Shown here: piece by piece, positions 1 through 34,026 of the stretch
Position numbering within the stretch: the stretch's first letter is position 1
Layout of the letters: the number at the start of each line of letters is the position of its first letter
From: a virus
Lineage: Duplodnaviria > Caudoviricetes
IMG/VR virus record: IMGVR_UViG_3300027212_000019
Coordinates: 1 to 34,026 of that record
Direction: 5' to 3' (one strand)
DNA: 34,026 nucleotides
The notes under the pieces: model-generated
The model's input: the letters and a program-made list of their open reading frames with translations, nothing else
Told to the model about the DNA's origin: nothing
Database searches by the model: none
Made by a program: the position numbers and the translations under genes

Positions 1-345
1 AAATTTAAATACGATGATGTCTCCAGGTTGAATGTCTTTTGCCTTTGGCGATACGAGCGTTGTAGTGCTGTTGTCTTGCTCTTTTGACCAACGGATAAAA
101 TCCCATGCACCCGCCGTGGTAGGTCGCTTAAAAGTGGCAGTCTGTTTGATTCCGCACTTTGTCATTGCTTCCCTCACAATAAAACAGACAAATGCCGCGC
201 ACCACGGCCATGCTTGTTTTGCATCCAAATTAGTAGCCGCCTTGTATTCATCAACTCGCTTTCCGCGATTACTATTCCGTGGCGATTCTCTCACCCCGAT
301 TTCGTCAATCGCTTTTGTGACTATTGCTGCTTGTAATGGCTTCAT
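1..345 (-). CDS. CHAP-family endolysin, truncated by window edge (lysis cassette A)
   Basis: Not in the ORF track; manual translation MKPLQAAIVTKAIDEIGVRESPRNSNRGKRVDEYKAATNLDAKQAWPWCAAFVCF...QPGDIIVFKF; has the WCAAF catalytic Cys motif; homologous to 32777-33274. Confidence 0.85.
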   Translation of the reverse strand, partial: MKPLQAAIVTKAIDEIGVRESPRNSNRGKRVDEYKAATNLDAKQAWPWCAAFVCFIVREAMTKCGIKQTATFKRPTTAGAWDFIRWSKEQDNSTTTLVSPKAKDIQPGDIIVFKF

Positions 346-470
346 TTTGCGTATGAGGGTTCGATGATAATCACGCCCGATGGTGACGCGGTGTAAGTCC
401 CGAATTTACCCTTGTAAACCACGCCGCACGATGACAGCGATAAAATGATGATTGCTAGTATTGTTTTCAT
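342..470 (-). CDS. Small lipoprotein, possible spanin component (cassette A)
   Basis: Manual translation MKTILAIIILSLSSCGVVYKGKFGTYTASPSGVIIIEPSYAK; lipobox LSSC; ATGA overlaps with both neighbours. Confidence 0.7.
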   Translation of the reverse strand: MKTILAIIILSLSSCGVVYKGKFGTYTASPSGVIIIEPSYAK

Positions 471-940
471 AAGATTTTTACATAAACGCCTTCTGTATCT
501 TTTCCAAAATACTTATCCCCGTATGCTTCCACCGCATCGTAATAATGACTGGCAAGCAAAAAACCATTTCGCTCCATGAGGTGCAGAAATTGATAGTTCG
601 CATCGTGCGCGTCATACATGCCGACTGCCGAAAATTGGAAAAGAACATCGTGCCAAAATGATGCTTCGATGGTGCCGGCAAAGTCTGGCGTTCCAATCCA
701 CGCTCCGAGCGGATAAAAACCGACGTATTTTTTCGGGCTGCATCCGTTCCAAAAATACTCGTTCGCCGCGAAAATCCAGCCGTTTTTAATCCATGCCCTA
801 AGCACCCCATCGGCACTATAAAATTCTACGTTTGGATGCTGTGAAAGCCTTCCTTTTAGAGTCGTGCAATTCACACCAACTGCAGCAAAGCGATATTTGC
901 GCTTGCCTTCTTTTGTCGGATGTAAGATGCGGTAGTTCAT
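467..940 (-). CDS. DUF1353-like protein
   Basis: WNGCSP...ASFWHDVLFQF...YYDAVEAYG resembles the DUF1353 pattern; coupled to neighbours. Confidence 0.55.
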   Translation of the reverse strand: MNYRILHPTKEGKRKYRFAAVGVNCTTLKGRLSQHPNVEFYSADGVLRAWIKNGWIFAANEYFWNGCSPKKYVGFYPLGAWIGTPDFAGTIEASFWHDVLFQFSAVGMYDAHDANYQFLHLMERNGFLLASHYYDAVEAYGDKYFGKDTEGVYVKIL

Positions 941-1215
941 TTGTTTCCCTCTGCTTTTTTCAATGCCGTCTCGTGCAATTCCTTGATGTAGTCATCTTTC
1001 TTTTCCAGCTTTTCGAATAGGTGTTTTACCGTCCGAGTTAGAACAAAAATACATGCGATGGCTAACCCCCAGCCAGTTAATGCGCTGGCATATTTAGCCA
1101 AACCAAGCTCGGCTGGAATTTCCGTGCTGAGTAAAAAGCTAAATCCGCTGCTGCAAAACAACGTGAGTGTTTTCGATATGCCAATTGAGAATTCTGTGAG
1201 TAGATCAAACTTCAT
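937..1215 (-). CDS. Holin-like membrane protein (cassette A)
   Basis: Likely start MKFDLL at 1215; two hydrophobic segments and a charged C-tail. Confidence 0.55.
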   Translation of the reverse strand: MKFDLLTEFSIGISKTLTLFCSSGFSFLLSTEIPAELGLAKYASALTGWGLAIACIFVLTRTVKHLFEKLEKKDDYIKELHETALKKAEGNK

Positions 1216-1549
1216 TTTCGATAGGTGTAAATGATTCAACGATTGGCGCGGTGTAAACAAATTTACCATCCGCAAATTTATAGCCAGTTGGCATTGTTAC
1301 GATCACGCGACTGATAATGTCGGTCTTTTCAAGCTGAGAATTAACCGCCGCGCCAAGTTCTGAGTTTGCCGCGAATCGTTCGAGAGTGGCGGCAAGATTG
1401 CCGTTGATGCTGTCGAGTATAACTTGCTTGTCACGCCGCCAAAAATCAGCATAGCACTCGTTGAGAGTATCTGCTAGATGCTTAGTTGCGATGATCCCTT
1501 TGCGAGTCAAGCCCTTTTCAAATTCTGCCGTTGTTAGTGATGTGTCCAT
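1205..1549 (-). CDS. Hypothetical protein after tail fibre (possible fibre chaperone)
   Basis: 114-aa ORF directly downstream of the fibre gene; its 3' part recurs at the window end. Confidence 0.6.
   Translation of the reverse strand: MDTSLTTAEFEKGLTRKGIIATKHLADTLNECYADFWRRDKQVILDSINGNLAATLERFAANSELGAAVNSQLEKTDIISRVIVTMPTGYKFADGKFVYTAPIVESFTPIENEV
1248..1346. repeat. 99-bp exact direct repeat, copy 1
   Basis: gcggtgtaaacaaatttacc...gctgagaattaacc identical to 33928-34026. Confidence 0.97.
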
Positions 1550-1553
1550 AAAA

Positions 1554-3236
1554 TTATAGAGTAGATGTTTGCCATGCCACGGTTGATCGCATCGGGGCTA
1601 AGTATTTATTGTTTGCCGTTGTTGACTGTAGCCAAAAACCAAGTCCAAGACTGCCAGTGCAGCTAAATCCACTCGTTGCCGATACCGTTACTGGCGTTGT
1701 GCTTGTTGATGTGGCAATAATCATATCGGTCTGCGTTGCTGATACAAATTTCATTGTTACTCTAACAATTTGATTTAGTGTGACAGCTTTACCTGTATCA
1801 ACTTTCGTTTTTACACCCGCGCTCGTCTCATGCAGTAGCTGCCAATTAGTATCGACTCCCGCTTCATAATACAAACCACGCCTTCCCACCTCTGCTGTTG
1901 CGCTTGCTGTATTTCTAATGCCGATAAAGATATTTTCACTCGCAATGCTTGTGTTGATGTTGAAAACTTGATCAAAAACTACGCCATTAAAGTTGGCGAT
2001 TGATGCTGCCGCACAAGTTGCAATGTAATAAAAATATGCTGCATTGTTTACCATCAAATTTACGCCGCCAAGAAATCCAGATGCATTAAAAGCTGAATCA
2101 CTCCAATTCGTTGCTGATCCCACAAGTATCCAGTTAAATGAGTTATTCCCCGAAGCAGTCAACCATCTCCCTAAAAAATTATCTTGAGCAAATTGGAACG
2201 GCACGGCAAACAATGATGCGATGCGAGAGTCAACCGAGCTTGTTCCGATTGCGGTGTTTAATGCTGCCGCTGCCCCCGCGCCGAACGTGTAGCTCGTCGC
2301 GTTAAATGTCGCCGCCGTGCCAAATGTCGCCGAGTTGATTGCTGGTGATGTCAGCGTTTTGTTGGTGAGTGTTTCGCTACCTGCTAGAGTCGCAATCGTA
2401 TTTGCAGCTGGTAAGCCTAGAGCGGTTACATGCGCTGATGCCGCGCCTGTGCCGTAGGTAAATGATGTGTTGTTAAAAGTCAACGCCGTGCCTGCGCTTA
2501 TGGTCATGTTTTGATCGCTAACGCCCCAAGTAAAACAAGCGTTTCCACTTCCATCAATCGCATTTGCACCAAGGATTCCACCTCCGTAATTTCTGCCAAG
2601 AAATGCAAAAAGCGTGCTATTACACACGATATTTCCACCCACACAGATAATCGAAGTCTCAGCTTGTAAAGTGTCAACAAACAAAGCCGCCGTCCCATCG
2701 CTTGTAGTCGCGCTTGTGACGGCGTTTGTAGCGACTGAGATTTGCCCAAATAAAAGCGAGTGGTTATTGGTAAATGCCGACCCTGCCGATGAAACTAACG
2801 TAACTGGAAAAGTGTAGTATGCCGTCGATGTCCCAGCGTCAGTAACAGTTGGCGTGTCGCTAATTAGCCATACTTGGTTGTTGGCTGAGTCGTCGCGGTC
2901 TTGAATGAAGATTTTTTGATTGACGACGAAAAAGGAAAGGAAAAGCTCGATGTCGGTGTCGTCATCGGTGAGGTGTGAGACAAGTATGCTTGTTGCGCTT
3001 GTCTGCGTGGCATTGTTCCATAATAGGTAGCCGTTACCAGGGTAGCCACTCGTTGCGTTGGTCTTGGCATTATAGTTCCATGCCGAGGTTGATCCCCCAG
3101 ATGCACCAGTTGGTCCAGTTGGTCCAGTGGGACCCATGTTGATCTGCACCACTGCTGGGGATCCAGTTGCTTGCAACTCCACAAGTGATGGATTGGCACT
3201 GGCAATTCTGATTTCTACGGTTGAAAGACTGCTCAT
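1554..3236 (-). CDS. Tail fibre / receptor-binding protein
   Basis: Likely start MSSLSTV at 3236 (ATGA overlap); short collagen run GPTGPTGPTG; TLTNKTLTSP fibre motif; internal repeat TFNxTSxTxGxGAAxA; beta-rich C-terminal domain. Confidence 0.8.
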   Translation of the reverse strand: MSSLSTVEIRIASANPSLVELQATGSPAVVQINMGPTGPTGPTGASGGSTSAWNYNAKTNATSGYPGNGYLLWNNATQTSATSILVSHLTDDDTDIELFLSFFVVNQKIFIQDRDDSANNQVWLISDTPTVTDAGTSTAYYTFPVTLVSSAGSAFTNNHSLLFGQISVATNAVTSATTSDGTAALFVDTLQAETSIICVGGNIVCNSTLFAFLGRNYGGGILGANAIDGSGNACFTWGVSDQNMTISAGTALTFNNTSFTYGTGAASAHVTALGLPAANTIATLAGSETLTNKTLTSPAINSATFGTAATFNATSYTFGAGAAAALNTAIGTSSVDSRIASLFAVPFQFAQDNFLGRWLTASGNNSFNWILVGSATNWSDSAFNASGFLGGVNLMVNNAAYFYYIATCAAASIANFNGVVFDQVFNINTSIASENIFIGIRNTASATAEVGRRGLYYEAGVDTNWQLLHETSAGVKTKVDTGKAVTLNQIVRVTMKFVSATQTDMIIATSTSTTPVTVSATSGFSCTGSLGLGFWLQSTTANNKYLAPMRSTVAWQTSTL

Positions 3237-23433: not shown

Positions 23434-23500
23434 AAATAAATCTGGACAGCATACAGAATAGTATGCATATTTCTCCCGCCGCGAGGCACTGAACCAAAAC
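23434..23500 (+). promoter_or_regulatory. Repeated promoter/operator element, copy P1
   Basis: aaataaatcTGGACAgCATACagaataGTATGcatatt...cccgccgcgaggcactgaaccaaaac; near-identical to 26797-26864. Confidence 0.75.
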
Positions 23501-23516
23501 TGAACCAACACACAAT

Positions 23517-23702
23517 ATGAAAATTAAAAATTACGCTGCTGCAGTTTCAAAAATCGAAAAATGCAAAAGCCTCAATGCTTGCGATAAGCTAGAAGAGGCA
23601 TTCGAGTATCAATATGATGAGGACGTTTTTACTACATCGGAGTATCTTACTCTAGATGGACTGCTGAACGAAAAAAGAAACGAAATCGAGGAATTGAACT
23701 AA
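23517..23702 (+). CDS. Small hypothetical early protein
   Basis: 61-aa acidic ORF directly after P1 with A/C-rich leader. Confidence 0.65.
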   Translation: MKIKNYAAAVSKIEKCKSLNACDKLEEAFEYQYDEDVFTTSEYLTLDGLLNEKRNEIEELN

Positions 23703-23738
23703 AACTGAACCAACCAAACAACACTAACTAAACACATT

Positions 23739-23984
23739 ATGCACAACACATTCACACCGACACAAAAAGTTTTAAGCGCACTTGCAATCAGCGAAAAAGA
23801 AGCGTTTTCAAATCCAAAGAAAGTAATTTTTGCAGCAAGTAAAAAGCTACAATCCATGGGCTACGTTCGCAAAATGAATCACATGGCATGGGAGCGCGGA
23901 ATGAGATGGTTTGCACCTAATGCATCCACGCCGATGGAAAATGCAGACACTGCAACAATCCTTGCTTACGCACTCAACAAATAA
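23739..23984 (+). CDS. Small hypothetical protein, possible winged helix
   Basis: QKVLSAL...KKLQSMGYVRK...WF pattern; A/C-rich leader. Confidence 0.6.
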   Translation: MHNTFTPTQKVLSALAISEKEAFSNPKKVIFAASKKLQSMGYVRKMNHMAWERGMRWFAPNASTPMENADTATILAYALNK

Positions 23985-23998
23985 AAAAATTCGTATTT

Positions 23999-24196
23999 AT
24001 GATGGACATAGCGGATCAGCAGATAACTAGCATAAAAGAAAAATACGCAGCAACCATTGCACAAATGATAAACGAATCTTTTACTAGATTTGAAAAAGCC
24101 GAAAAGGATGAAATCAAAATTTGTGAAGATTGCGCTGATACTTATGAGGATTGCGATTGCAGCGAAGATGACGGAACACCAATTAGACACAGCTAA
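23999..24196 (+). CDS. Small acidic protein with CxxC...CxC motif
   Basis: ICEDCADTYEDCDC. Confidence 0.55.
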   Translation: MMDIADQQITSIKEKYAATIAQMINESFTRFEKAEKDEIKICEDCADTYEDCDCSEDDGTPIRHS

Positions 24197-24253
24197 AAAA
24201 ACAGGGGCGCGACTGTAACGCGCTAATTTTAACACATCAACCATACCAAACTT

Positions 24254-24475
24254 ATGAAAATACTATCACCATACAGAAACTACATCGCAATCATCGATAA
24301 TGACGAAGCACACCCAATTGATCTCCGCGCCAGAGATGCTGCTGATGCTAAGAAAAAAGCCAGACGCTACATGAGCGATGTCGTTGGTCACTCTGTCAAA
24401 TATGAGGGTCCTTATAAACTGAACATCAGACTTGCAACACCAGAAGCACCAGACGCACCAGACGCAGAAGATTGA
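24254..24475 (+). CDS. Small hypothetical protein
   Basis: 73 aa; cataccaaac leader; LRARDAADAKKKA motif. Confidence 0.6.
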   Translation: MKILSPYRNYIAIIDNDEAHPIDLRARDAADAKKKARRYMSDVVGHSVKYEGPYKLNIRLATPEAPDAPDAED

Positions 24476-24493
24476 TCTACTCACATACCAGCA

Positions 24494-24530
24494 ATCACCT
24501 CACCCATTGAATTGGGTGGGGTTTTCTGGG
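24494..24530 (+). terminator. Repeated terminator, copy T1
   Basis: atcacctcacccattgaattgggtggggttttctggg hairpin plus T-tract; identical to 27242-27278. Confidence 0.75.
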
Positions 24531-25267: not shown

Positions 25268-26496
25268 CACCAGAAAATACACATTATGCATGGGGAGCAA
25301 GTGCTGCAAAACAGTGGAGAGGATGTGCCGGGTCAGTAGCATACATCGCACAGTGCAAGGCAGCAGGGATGATCCCTGCCAAGGTTGACACAGCATACTC
25401 ACTGGAAGGCACTGAGGCACACGATTGGGCAGACCGATGCCTCAAGGGTGACATAGTCCGGTCCGAGATCCCTGAGTCATTTCTGGAGCATCTTGGTGGC
25501 TACATTGATTATGCGGATGAACTGGCAGAACAGATGCACGGTGGTGCCACAGTATTCACTGAGCAGAAGGTGCCTCTCTACTACAACAAGTCTGTGCATG
25601 GCACCATTGACTTTGCTGTGGTGGGTGAGAAGGGAATCAATATCTTGGATCTGAAGTATGGTGTCGGTGAGAAGGTCAGTGCAGAGGGCAATGATCAACT
25701 CGCCATCTATGCCATCTCTCTGGTGGAGTTGCTCCAATCACAAGGTCACAAGTTCACAAAGACCACACCGGTGACCATGGCGATCTACCAGCCGCGCCAC
25801 CACTCGTTTGATGGCACTGCGGAAGTGTGGACCACCACACTTGGTGAATTGATGATGCAGATCGGTGAGCGGATCTTTGAGTCATACCAAGTGAGCAAAG
25901 CAGCAGATGCCACTCAACTCACACCATCTTATGATGCTTGCCGGTTCTGTGATGCTCGCAGGGTCTGTGCCACCAGAGTGGGTGCCATGTTCGATGGTCT
26001 GCCAGACGAGATCAACCCGCTCAAAGGTGAGATTGACAAAGAGCAGATTGCCAAGGTTGAGATCACCGATGCAGTCCGTGTGAGGATTGCAATGAAGTCA
26101 AAGGAGATCAGCAAGTTCTTTGATGAACTCAATGAGAACACACTGGAGTTGATCGAAGCAGGGCAGAGCATCTGTGGTCTCAAGACCATCGACGGTGGCA
26201 AAGGCAACAGACGGTGGAGCAGTGAGTCAGAGGTTGACAAGTTGCTGCGTAAGATCCCAGCAGCAGAAAAGTATGCACCCAAAAAACTGCTATCACCGGC
26301 ACAGATTGAGAAGGTGCTGAAGAAGAATGGCACACCACTGGAGAAGCAACACAAGAGATTTTTGAGCCGGTGGGACCAACTGGTCACACAACCAGAAGGA
26401 TCTCCAAAACTGGTGCTGGAGTCAGATCCAAGACCAGCAAGAGTCACTGCTGCTGGCAACTTTGAGGATGAGATTGCAGAGGAGGATTGTTTATGA
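25264..26496 (+). CDS. DUF2800 Cas4-like PD-(D/E)xK exonuclease
   Basis: WRGC, EGTEAH, GTIDF, ILDLKYG, QLAIYA and CRFC...C motifs. Confidence 0.88.
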   Translation: MTPENTHYAWGASAAKQWRGCAGSVAYIAQCKAAGMIPAKVDTAYSLEGTEAHDWADRCLKGDIVRSEIPESFLEHLGGYIDYADELAEQMHGGATVFTEQKVPLYYNKSVHGTIDFAVVGEKGINILDLKYGVGEKVSAEGNDQLAIYAISLVELLQSQGHKFTKTTPVTMAIYQPRHHSFDGTAEVWTTTLGELMMQIGERIFESYQVSKAADATQLTPSYDACRFCDARRVCATRVGAMFDGLPDEINPLKGEIDKEQIAKVEITDAVRVRIAMKSKEISKFFDELNENTLELIEAGQSICGLKTIDGGKGNRRWSSESEVDKLLRKIPAAEKYAPKKLLSPAQIEKVLKKNGTPLEKQHKRFLSRWDQLVTQPEGSPKLVLESDPRPARVTAAGNFEDEIAEEDCL

Positions 26497-26512
26497 ACAC
26501 ACCGACACCAAC

Positions 26513-26761
26513 ATGAGCGCGAAAAAAACCACGAAGAAGAAATCCTCTCATGCCGCGCATTGCTCGCGTTTCTTCATAGCTCAACCCGGCTACATGCTGA
26601 AAAATCTAGCCCCGCTGCAAAAGTGGCATGAATGGGAAGTGGGCGACCATCGAGGGCAAGATCGAATCTGCCTGACCTCATGCAAACGCAAAGCAGAACT
26701 GATCCGTGACGCACTAGAATCCTTCCACGCGAATAGCAAAGATCGCTCACCGAAAGGTTGA
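26513..26761 (+). CDS. Hypothetical protein carried on an attC-like cassette
   Basis: MSAKKTT... 82 aa; both ends overlap attC-like sequences; CpG-rich relative to flanks. Confidence 0.55.
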   Translation: MSAKKTTKKKSSHAAHCSRFFIAQPGYMLKNLAPLQKWHEWEVGDHRGQDRICLTSCKRKAELIRDALESFHANSKDRSPKG

Positions 26762-26780
26762 GCGCATCGAAATGTTCTGC
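26728..26780. other. attC-like recombination hairpin (inverted relative to the gene)
   Basis: CGCGAAT-6nt-GATCGCTCA-CC-GAAA-GG-(T)-TGAGCG-(C)-ATC-5nt-GTTCTGC, with two extrahelical bases. Confidence 0.55.
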
Positions 26781-26796
26781 TGTAAAAAATAATTGA

Positions 26797-26864
26797 AAAT
26801 AAATCTGGACAGCATACAAAAGTGTATGGTATGCTGTCCCCGCCGGACGGCACTGAACCAAAAC
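26797..26864 (+). promoter_or_regulatory. Repeated promoter/operator element, copy P2
   Basis: aaataaatcTGGACAgCATACaaaagtGTATGgTATGCT...cccgccggacggcactgaaccaaaac. Confidence 0.75.
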
Positions 26865-33432: not shown

Positions 33433-33609
33433 TTAAATTCCCGTGCCAGTGATGCCAGCATCCTTGGACACATACCCAAAGACTGCTACCAAGACTGGCA
33501 GAGCGTAGAGTTTCCAGTCAGCTAAGTCCCCACCACTTTGGATGTAGATGGTGATTGCAGTGAGTGCCGCGCCAATCGCGCCCAGTAATGTTGTTTTCCA
33601 GTTCTTCAT
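33433..33609 (-). CDS. Holin-like protein
   Basis: Manual translation MKNWKTTLLGAIGAALTAITIYI...LYALPVLVAVFGYVSKDAGITGTGI; two TM segments. Confidence 0.7.
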   Translation of the reverse strand: MKNWKTTLLGAIGAALTAITIYIQSGGDLADWKLYALPVLVAVFGYVSKDAGITGTGI

Positions 33610-33613
33610 ATTT

Positions 33614-33712
33614 TTAATCTGTGAAATTTGCCTTAAATATGTTCCATACTACGACAAGTGCGAAAAGCGTTGCTGTGGCTTTTATGATTGTCATGTAGTC
33701 ATCAGTATTCAT
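33614..33712 (-). CDS. 32-aa single-TM protein
   Basis: MNTDDYMTIIKATATLFALVVVWNIFKANFTD; ATGA overlap; fills the gap between lysis genes. Confidence 0.45.
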   Translation of the reverse strand: MNTDDYMTIIKATATLFALVVVWNIFKANFTD

Positions 33713-33891
33713 TTCTTTTTCCGTAAAAGATTGCAGAGGGTGACAATGGAAACGCAAATCAGAAGTATTGTCGAAGATGTTTTCAAAGCCCAGTCTAGTT
33801 GTTCTTGGAACTGAGTAATGACACCCAAGGAGGATGCGGCAATGCCGATAAGACCGTTCACTATGTTATATGTTGCGCTGTGTTCGTGCAT
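33709..33891 (-). CDS. Small two-TM membrane protein (holin/antiholin-like)
   Basis: 60 aa, two hydrophobic segments, RKKK tail; TAATG overlap. Confidence 0.55.
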   Translation of the reverse strand: MHEHSATYNIVNGLIGIAASSLGVITQFQEQLDWALKTSSTILLICVSIVTLCNLLRKKK

Positions 33892-34026
33892 TATTCTATG
33901 ATTTCCAATACTGGTTCTGGTGCTGGTGCGGTGTAAACAAATTTACCATCCGCAAATTTATAGCCAGTTGGCATTGTTACGATCACGCGACTGATAATGT
34001 CGGTCTTTTCAAGCTGAGAATTAACC
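33891..34026 (-). CDS. 3' end of the 1205-1549 gene with an alternative C-terminus (partial)
   Basis: ...GKFVYTAP is followed by APEPVLEIIE* instead of IVESFTPIENEV*. Confidence 0.75.
   Translation of the reverse strand, partial: VNSQLEKTDIISRVIVTMPTGYKFADGKFVYTAPAPEPVLEIIE
33928..34026. repeat. 99-bp exact direct repeat, copy 2 (window end)
   Basis: Identical to 1248-1346. Confidence 0.97.

Follow-up and report, generated by a model that had tools for sequence, protein, structure and literature searches.

The open reading frame at 26513-26761 of a tailed-phage genome runs into a hairpin that resembles the attC site of integrons. Is this hairpin the gene's own recombination site, or does it belong to the place where the gene landed? 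A first-pass annotation had taken the former view, i.e. an integron cassette spanning 26562-26774 that had been captured from a host integron and carried its own attC, inverted, at its end. The DNA analysed here, referred to as the window, is the whole record IMGVR_UViG_3300027212_000019 of IMG/VR, 34,026 nucleotides long. Our results favour another answer, which we consider reasonably likely: the 53-nt hairpin is a short, attC-shaped site of a conserved family that ends rows of backwards cassettes, and it is likely the dock where an integron-type integrase, probably from a prophage or the host, would insert genes at AA|C.

The window contains genes for terminase, portal, head, DNA polymerase, helicase and exonuclease, and its completeness was estimated by CheckV as 100%. 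An overlap of 103 nt (1244-1346 vs 33924-34026) closes the record into a circle of about 32.7 kb. Positions 1-1243 lie outside this overlap and the alignment with the sister genome is limited to 1244-34026; the first 1243 positions probably represent either an alternative end module or a strain chimera produced by the assembly. The phage had been described as lacking an integrase, and indeed the PF00589 profile detected no tyrosine recombinase in the window record, nor in five relatives. Genome-wide, both CpG and TpA were depleted (observed/expected ratios of 0.51 and 0.38). The CpG richness that had been noticed in the small ORF was real (1.18 vs 0.51), although it was shared with the early genes at 23500-24500 and with positions 1-3000; CpG was also at a normal level in 33500-34026. 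Over the whole window GGCC occurred once (94 expected) and GTAC five times (47 expected), a scarcity that suggests avoidance of host restriction sites.

The gene occupies a slot between the exonuclease gene, which ends at 26496, and a repeated phage promoter at 26806-26835; the exonuclease and a Gp2.5-like annealing protein are encoded beside the slot. The features discussed below are as follows.

26492-26498, + strand: possible upstream crossover box, ending in AAC.
26498-26561, + strand: what is left, after decay, of the long-loop attC-type hairpin that belongs to the gene, with the start codon and the N-terminal codons inside it.
26513-26761, + strand: 82-aa cassette gene, its C-terminal tail read from the downstream hairpin.
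26562-26568, + strand: 5' box of the cassette (R''-type) with GTT changed to GCT, encoding a conserved Cys-Ser-Arg.
26728-26734, + strand: 3' box of the cassette (R'-type) ending in AAT, with a putative crossover AA|T at 26733/26734.
26734-26780, + strand: short-loop attC-type hairpin that supplies the stop codon of the ORF.
26806-26839, + strand: sigma-70-type phage promoter with an 11-bp perfect inverted repeat, part of the backbone and outside the cassette.

The slot turns over among sister phages: L028 has an extra gene there, L013 has nothing, and L012 has another gene and no hairpin, gene and hairpin having been replaced together. The promoter, identified by promoter prediction, has a related copy near 23440 and is present also in the hairpin-less L012; its inverted repeat spans the -35 and -10 boxes (z -4.45) and is possibly an operator. 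Contigs of two other sequencing runs, one of which is possibly the source sample, covered the hairpin with identical letters, and neither joints nor variants were found at the hairpin in contigs of four runs.

All the letters of the earlier description, i.e. the ORF, boxes, spacers, bulges and total length, were found in the window. The stem-loop occupies 26741-26768, with bulges at C26765 and T26758/26759, and is flanked by spacers of 6 nt and 5 nt, the R' box CGCGAAT and the GTT box GTTCTGC (26774-26780), 53 nt in all. The extrahelical bases sit on the arm opposite AAC; the far one is T and the first is C, not the usual G, and they can be placed in either a 5-bp or a 6-bp register. The triplet pair is AAT/GTT with a T-G wobble, i.e. 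the AAC typical of attC was not found in the window copy.

To search for this geometry we used a scanner with the layout AAC, 5-6 nt, 3 bp, bulge, 5-6 bp, bulged T, 3 bp, loop, 5 nt, GTT, its features being drawn from the anatomy of the recombined attC strand in the consulted parts of Nivina et al. (PMC5027507). On both strands of the 34 kb it reported a single site, 26732-26776 (+), with a score that was matched by 2 of 40 block-shuffled windows. The control attC sites (P1 class 1 integron, TJE1, M16-3 and pNA6) were all reported on the strand opposite to their cassette genes. The window site is therefore inverted relative to its gene, as had been proposed, and what lies on the gene strand is arranged like the bottom strand of a canonical attC, the strand that recombines. 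The scanner missed long Vibrio attC sites, which were found by a covariance model. The first-pass annotation had named a search with an attC covariance model as a check, and our home-made model of 12 canonical sites gave no match to the window site even at E<=10; the same model detected long-loop sites of phages (L089, L081) and gave a weak signal for the short site in L028.

As a DNA fold, the hairpin was unremarkable (z -1.3 to -1.6). The bottom and top strands of the window site differed little in stability (-8.5 vs -8.1 kcal/mol), canonical controls were mixed, and a folding bias towards the gene strand was absent from the viral sites, the gene strand giving the more stable fold in 9 of 20 short and 25 of 53 long ones. 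The predicted pairing of the R boxes was 0.09 in the window vs a family median of 0.67, and the window dock is predicted to be weak. Since this copy is partly decayed, we regard it as a marker of the system and not as its best specimen.

Motif searches of viral contigs yielded 73 distinct sites, 53 with a long loop and 20 with a short loop, and in 21 viral loci (duplicates included) the scanner gave 46 matches on the motif strand and none on the other. Long-loop sites follow one another in chains, where the box after a site was the perfect complement of the box preceding the next site in 29 of 33 pairs of neighbours no more than 700 bp apart (5000 permutations gave a mean of 2.9 and a maximum of 10). 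The ATG of the next gene, with a reading frame that continues for at least 30 codons beyond the GTT, was contained in 38 of the 53 long-loop hairpins vs 10 of 53 on the opposite strand. No downstream neighbour within 700 bp was found for any of the 20 short sites, and three farther neighbours were not complementary.

Short sites measure 52-56 nt (n=20), their triplet is AAC in 16 and AAT in three, the first bulge is mostly C and the loop sequence is not conserved. The window site had been called short and decayed; shortness turned out to be a family trait and AAT a recurrent variant, and the verdict of decay was right in part. Among stem pairs, 9 of 14 changed on both sides and 98.5% of cells were paired, a covariation that involves some circularity, since pairing is a requirement of the scanner. 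A count of 17 G-T vs 2 A-C is biased by the scanner's scoring and was set aside. When a stem-free pattern was used, the geometry was passed by 23 of 35 viral matches vs none of 69 matches in prokaryote genomes. A family model built from 15 short sites, leaving out the window and its three closest relatives (the two of L014 and that of L089), recovered the window site with 55.5 bits (E 1.2e-12) and had no other match in a 190-kb set to which canonical integrons and the sister phage belonged. The short-site model gave no site in 151 genomes of the order searched (30 candidates scored per genome). The scanner, the family pattern, the covariation and the leave-out model all point to the hairpin at 26734-26780, which would likely be a terminal docking site. 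We also noticed short sites with arms from different variants (L079:191, L103:2994, L106:2994), half-sites reduced to the 5' arm (L036, L056) and a long-loop site in L063 with the same middle stem as the window.

The 82-aa gene has 34 close homologues, with a constant core and variable ends. In DNA searches, viral contigs gave 11 loci and metagenome contigs 12, one of the latter being the window itself, and none came from 185,579 prokaryote genomes or from GenBank phages; the proposed capture from a host integron found no support there. The core is under purifying selection (pN 0-0.095 vs pS 0.14-0.98 over 43 codons in 10 comparisons). Its predicted fold comprises three strands and one helix (model pLDDT 69). 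Pfam and NCBIfam gave nothing for the ORF, PHROG 15926 matched at no better than E 0.005, the best ESM Atlas score (0.81) was at chance level, and fold searches reached at best Z 5.3 (YaiA, rmsd 5.9 Å, 68 aligned), with no viral match under E 0.001. As the fold searches were uninformative, no function could be assigned, and we propose with low confidence that the product is an early accessory protein.

Four of 18 compared sequences (L020, L021, L022, L035) begin at the core and have neither box; the remaining 14 carry a GTT box at a Cys-Ser-Arg or Arg-Ser-Arg motif together with a complementary box at the end. The boxes at 26562-26568 and 26728-26734 are complementary in the window, and in relatives they are intact and covary. 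The intact forms that had been predicted from the window do exist, GTTCGCGT in L014, L028 and L029 and ACGCGAAC in L028 and L029, and in distant copies both boxes are jointly changed to GTTCTCG/CGAGAAC (L023, L030, L032, L033). After a His/Tyr-Ala-Asn/Thr junction, close copies continue into five different tails. Downstream, L014 has the same short hairpin as the window, L027 and L028 have another short hairpin, and L029 has a long-loop remnant. When the window, L028, L029, L030, L032 and L033 are compared, the same gene is followed by different sites while the upstream hairpin is kept. As the comparison shows, the last codons of the gene come from whichever site follows.

Intact upstream hairpins that include the start codon precede homologues in L030, L031, L032, L033, L034 and L036. 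In L029, 12 extra bases of the 3' arm complete the upstream hairpin by eye, the scanner not calling this site, and the window lacks those 12 bases and part of the 5' arm. The comparison with L029 identifies 26498-26561 as the remnant of such a hairpin. The suggestion that both ends of the protein are encoded by att sequence is supported, with the start codon in the upstream remnant and the tail and stop codon in the downstream hairpin. The compared loci show the unit to begin with a long-loop hairpin that contains the start codon, after which come the GTT box, the gene and, last, a complementary box with AA at its end; as read from these alignments, it is here the upstream hairpin plus the gene, about 26498-26733.

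L012 aligns with the window up to 26497 and then continues into an unrelated gene, which is weak evidence for a crossover box at 26492-26498, since many genes start with ATGAA and the letters at this place are ATC in L014 and L029. The possible box overlaps the stop codon of the exonuclease (26494-26496) as well as the ATG of a 7-codon leader; the leader spans 26493-26516, and its own stop codon overlaps the start of the ORF. As its own upstream site has decayed, the gene is probably fixed and, we infer, has probably lost the ability to be excised. A tree built from 49 homologue cores (P0049 and P0050 excluded, 2 rows skipped) required 11 changes of att label; with 2 of 44 branches well supported, it does not discriminate between an att-bearing and an att-free ancestor.

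The positions where relatives diverge indicate to which side the short hairpin belongs. Among 56 pairs of loci with similar hairpins, 45 differ in both flanks, nine share the downstream flank only, one shares both, and one, the window with L014, shares the upstream flank only. Of 12 BLAST pairs that share a short site, and that are not independent of each other, six are homologous from the initial A of the triplet onwards, two from within 2 nt of it (one a duplicate) and two from 9-11 nt upstream; the last two are uninformative. The match between the window and L029 stops at 26733, and the breakpoints of the family map to the triplet. Since L086 and L089 share AA|T and the hairpin and differ in the gene ahead, the T belongs to the site. 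Short-loop sites thus stand last in their rows and stay with the downstream backbone, while the gene ahead changes at AA|C. Because relatives break there, the hairpin goes with the downstream sequence, as canonical cleavage at AA|C predicts, which leaves the decayed upstream site as the gene's own. The first-pass annotation had expected a cassette of 26562-26774 and divergence at its GTT-like boundaries; the breaks lie instead at AA|T (26733/26734) and not at the GTT boxes. The exceptional L014 (5909-6230), from an unrelated phage, contains the gene, the hairpin and roughly 30 bp of the window's exonuclease tail, all attached to the end of a different ORF, and is best read as evidence of block transfer from phage to phage that ignored the boxes. 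Neither a convincing empty dock nor a first box complementary to the GTT box of a dock was found among the sites examined.

A candidate enzyme for such sites occurs in other phage records. PF00589 was found in 2 of 37 further records and in none of nine near-complete ones. One of the two contains three cassettes, two of which are methyltransferases, and they end at a non-hairpin site directly before a co-directional gene for a 324-aa recombinase. The phage recombinase scored 252 bits against TIGR02249 (cut-off 265), and its best PDB match was 2a3v, in an alignment that included the IntI-specific insertion. In a Mu-like record, an enzyme with 80% identity is preceded by the same non-hairpin site. 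The long-loop hairpin families at these integrase arrays are those that precede homologues of the window gene. L182:2650-3670 and L183:4941-5970 hold complete mirror-image integrons, with inverted cassettes, a conserved non-hairpin attI-like site and a co-directional IntI-type gene, and the non-hairpin sequence before the integrase is the true attI-like site of the system. No short hairpin was seen beside an integrase; integrase-linked arrays end in the non-hairpin site. A similar attI-like site without an adjacent intact integrase was noticed at L184:2939, and a long AAC/GTT hairpin near small genes and methyltransferases at L195:8415-8545 (KX853513, a GenBank virus with an IntI-like gene).

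The named relatives of the integrase come from Luteolibacter marinus (85%) and Haloferula luteola (80%), and only these speak to the host, since the polymerase gave no named organism. Within the order to which a Verrucomicrobiales bin belongs, 84 of 301 genomes had IntI-like chromosomal genes, and 2 of 30 chromosomal IntI loci (L211, L216) had similar hairpins in canonical orientation. The phage IntI clade and a host integron appear to be equally good sources of the enzyme, and either could act in trans.

In the mechanism that we propose, cassette circle and short site would both be folded, and an IntI-type enzyme would recombine one with the other. Extrusion of the site from supercoiled DNA would be made possible by its short loop, as short-loop sites do extrude according to the consulted parts of PMC8946536. 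The 82-aa gene would be the last unit docked here, probably expressed by translational coupling behind the exonuclease.

Several other explanations were weighed against such a dock. The short hairpin could be a real attC-type relic, left by a gene-less cassette or one that lost its cargo, and kept as a donor of stop codons and not as an insertion site. The lack of an empty dock and of an adjacent integrase would fit a relic, as would the half-sites, the hybrids with mismatched arms, the poor fold of the window copy and the middle stem shared with the long-loop site of L063. However, the upstream gene is swapped exactly at AA|C while the hairpin and the downstream flank stay, and the full geometry covaries across unrelated phages, which a donor of stop codons would not need; we regard a relic as unlikely. 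That the hairpin is the own inverted attC of a host integron cassette at 26562-26774 is quite improbable. L014 has both gene and hairpin, IntI-like genes and similar hairpins in canonical arrays do occur in the order searched, and low-rate recombination of the top strand is reported in the consulted parts of PMC5027507, but the AA|C breakpoints largely refute such a cassette, the same gene stands before different downstream sites with its upstream hairpin kept, prokaryote genomes hold no homologue, and the L014 block includes the exonuclease tail.

It is also conceivable, though very improbable in our judgement, that the sites are mere repeats at which the phage exonuclease and annealing protein swap genes by homologous recombination without IntI. 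Both proteins are encoded beside the slot and block transfers are seen; such swapping, however, needs neither ends with cassette-specific complementarity (29 of 33) nor conserved bulges nor breakpoints at a single position, and arrays of this kind are closed by an IntI gene with an attI-like site. Next to no weight falls on an ordinary RNA hairpin (a GAAA tetraloop element or a terminator) or on chance. The + strand RNA fold has a z of about -2.7 to -3.0, but the hairpin was not called as an intrinsic terminator, for which a stem followed by a U-tract was sought and not found, it had no match in Rfam and its loop sequence is not conserved in the family, while chance is refuted by the E-value of the family model. 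An additional role of the hairpin as RNA may exist.

With the terminal dock as the preferred reading, a wider picture can be sketched, which is tentative and against which, taken in full, we lean slightly. Phages of Verrucomicrobiales may run a mirror-image integron network, in which temperate phages (Mu-like and other) carry the IntI clade and attI, and integrase-less phages use the mini attC hairpin as a portable substitute for attI that parasitises the enzyme in shared hosts. The cassette pool would be confined to phages, with sites written into the protein ends, so that each insertion rewrites a C-terminus.

In aquatic phages, small early genes form a patchwork that is usually attributed to illegitimate recombination. 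Our findings point to a site-specific route behind it, and they offer natural attC-like sites that are below the published length range and overlap coding sequence, as well as a candidate hairpin replacing attI and a phage-borne IntI clade. As a single gene family includes copies with and without att, the findings also bear on the origin and fixation of cassettes.

Among known systems, integron attC sites are the closest. In the consulted parts of Nivina et al. 2016 (PMC5027507) they are 57-141 bp long with RYYYAAC/GTTRRRY boxes, and they share with the sites described here the AAC/GTT triplets, unpaired spacers of 5-6 nt, two extrahelical bases opposite AAC (the far one T), complementary cassette ends and the AA|C crossover. 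In contrast, here the bottom-strand layout lies on the coding strand, the sites overlap coding sequence and hold start or stop codons, and the terminal site is 52-56 nt long, with a first bulge that is mostly C and boxes off the consensus. Compared with a canonical integron cassette, the unit has its own site upstream, not downstream, and its gene on the bottom-strand side.

The phage CALINs of Qi et al. 2023 (PMC9892861), which according to the consulted parts are recombined by IntI1, have in common with our locus attC-type sites in virulent phages without an integrase; by our scanner the sites of the TJE1 phage CALIN are in canonical orientation, unlike the window site. The same parts mention divergent attC directions for P12002L and describe neither inverted codon-bearing sites nor a hairpin dock, and no description of inverted codon-bearing phage cassettes or of a hairpin dock was found in the literature searched, mostly open and at the level of abstracts. 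With SALINs, as described in the consulted parts of 10.1101/2022.09.11.507474, the window shares a single attC-type site, one gene and no integrase; it indeed has the one attC-type site without neighbouring integrase by which SALINs and CALINs are recognised. A lone insertion at attG, from the parts of its description consulted, leaves a hairpin on one side only, which here would be upstream, whereas in the phages a distinct family closes the row. Like attI, the short hairpin marks the array end where neighbours change, as judged from comparative evidence only; unlike attI, it is a folding hairpin and not a double-stranded site, and it does not stand next to intI. What we propose is thus not membership in canonical attC but a site that, judging from sequence, would work like attC and stands where attI would.
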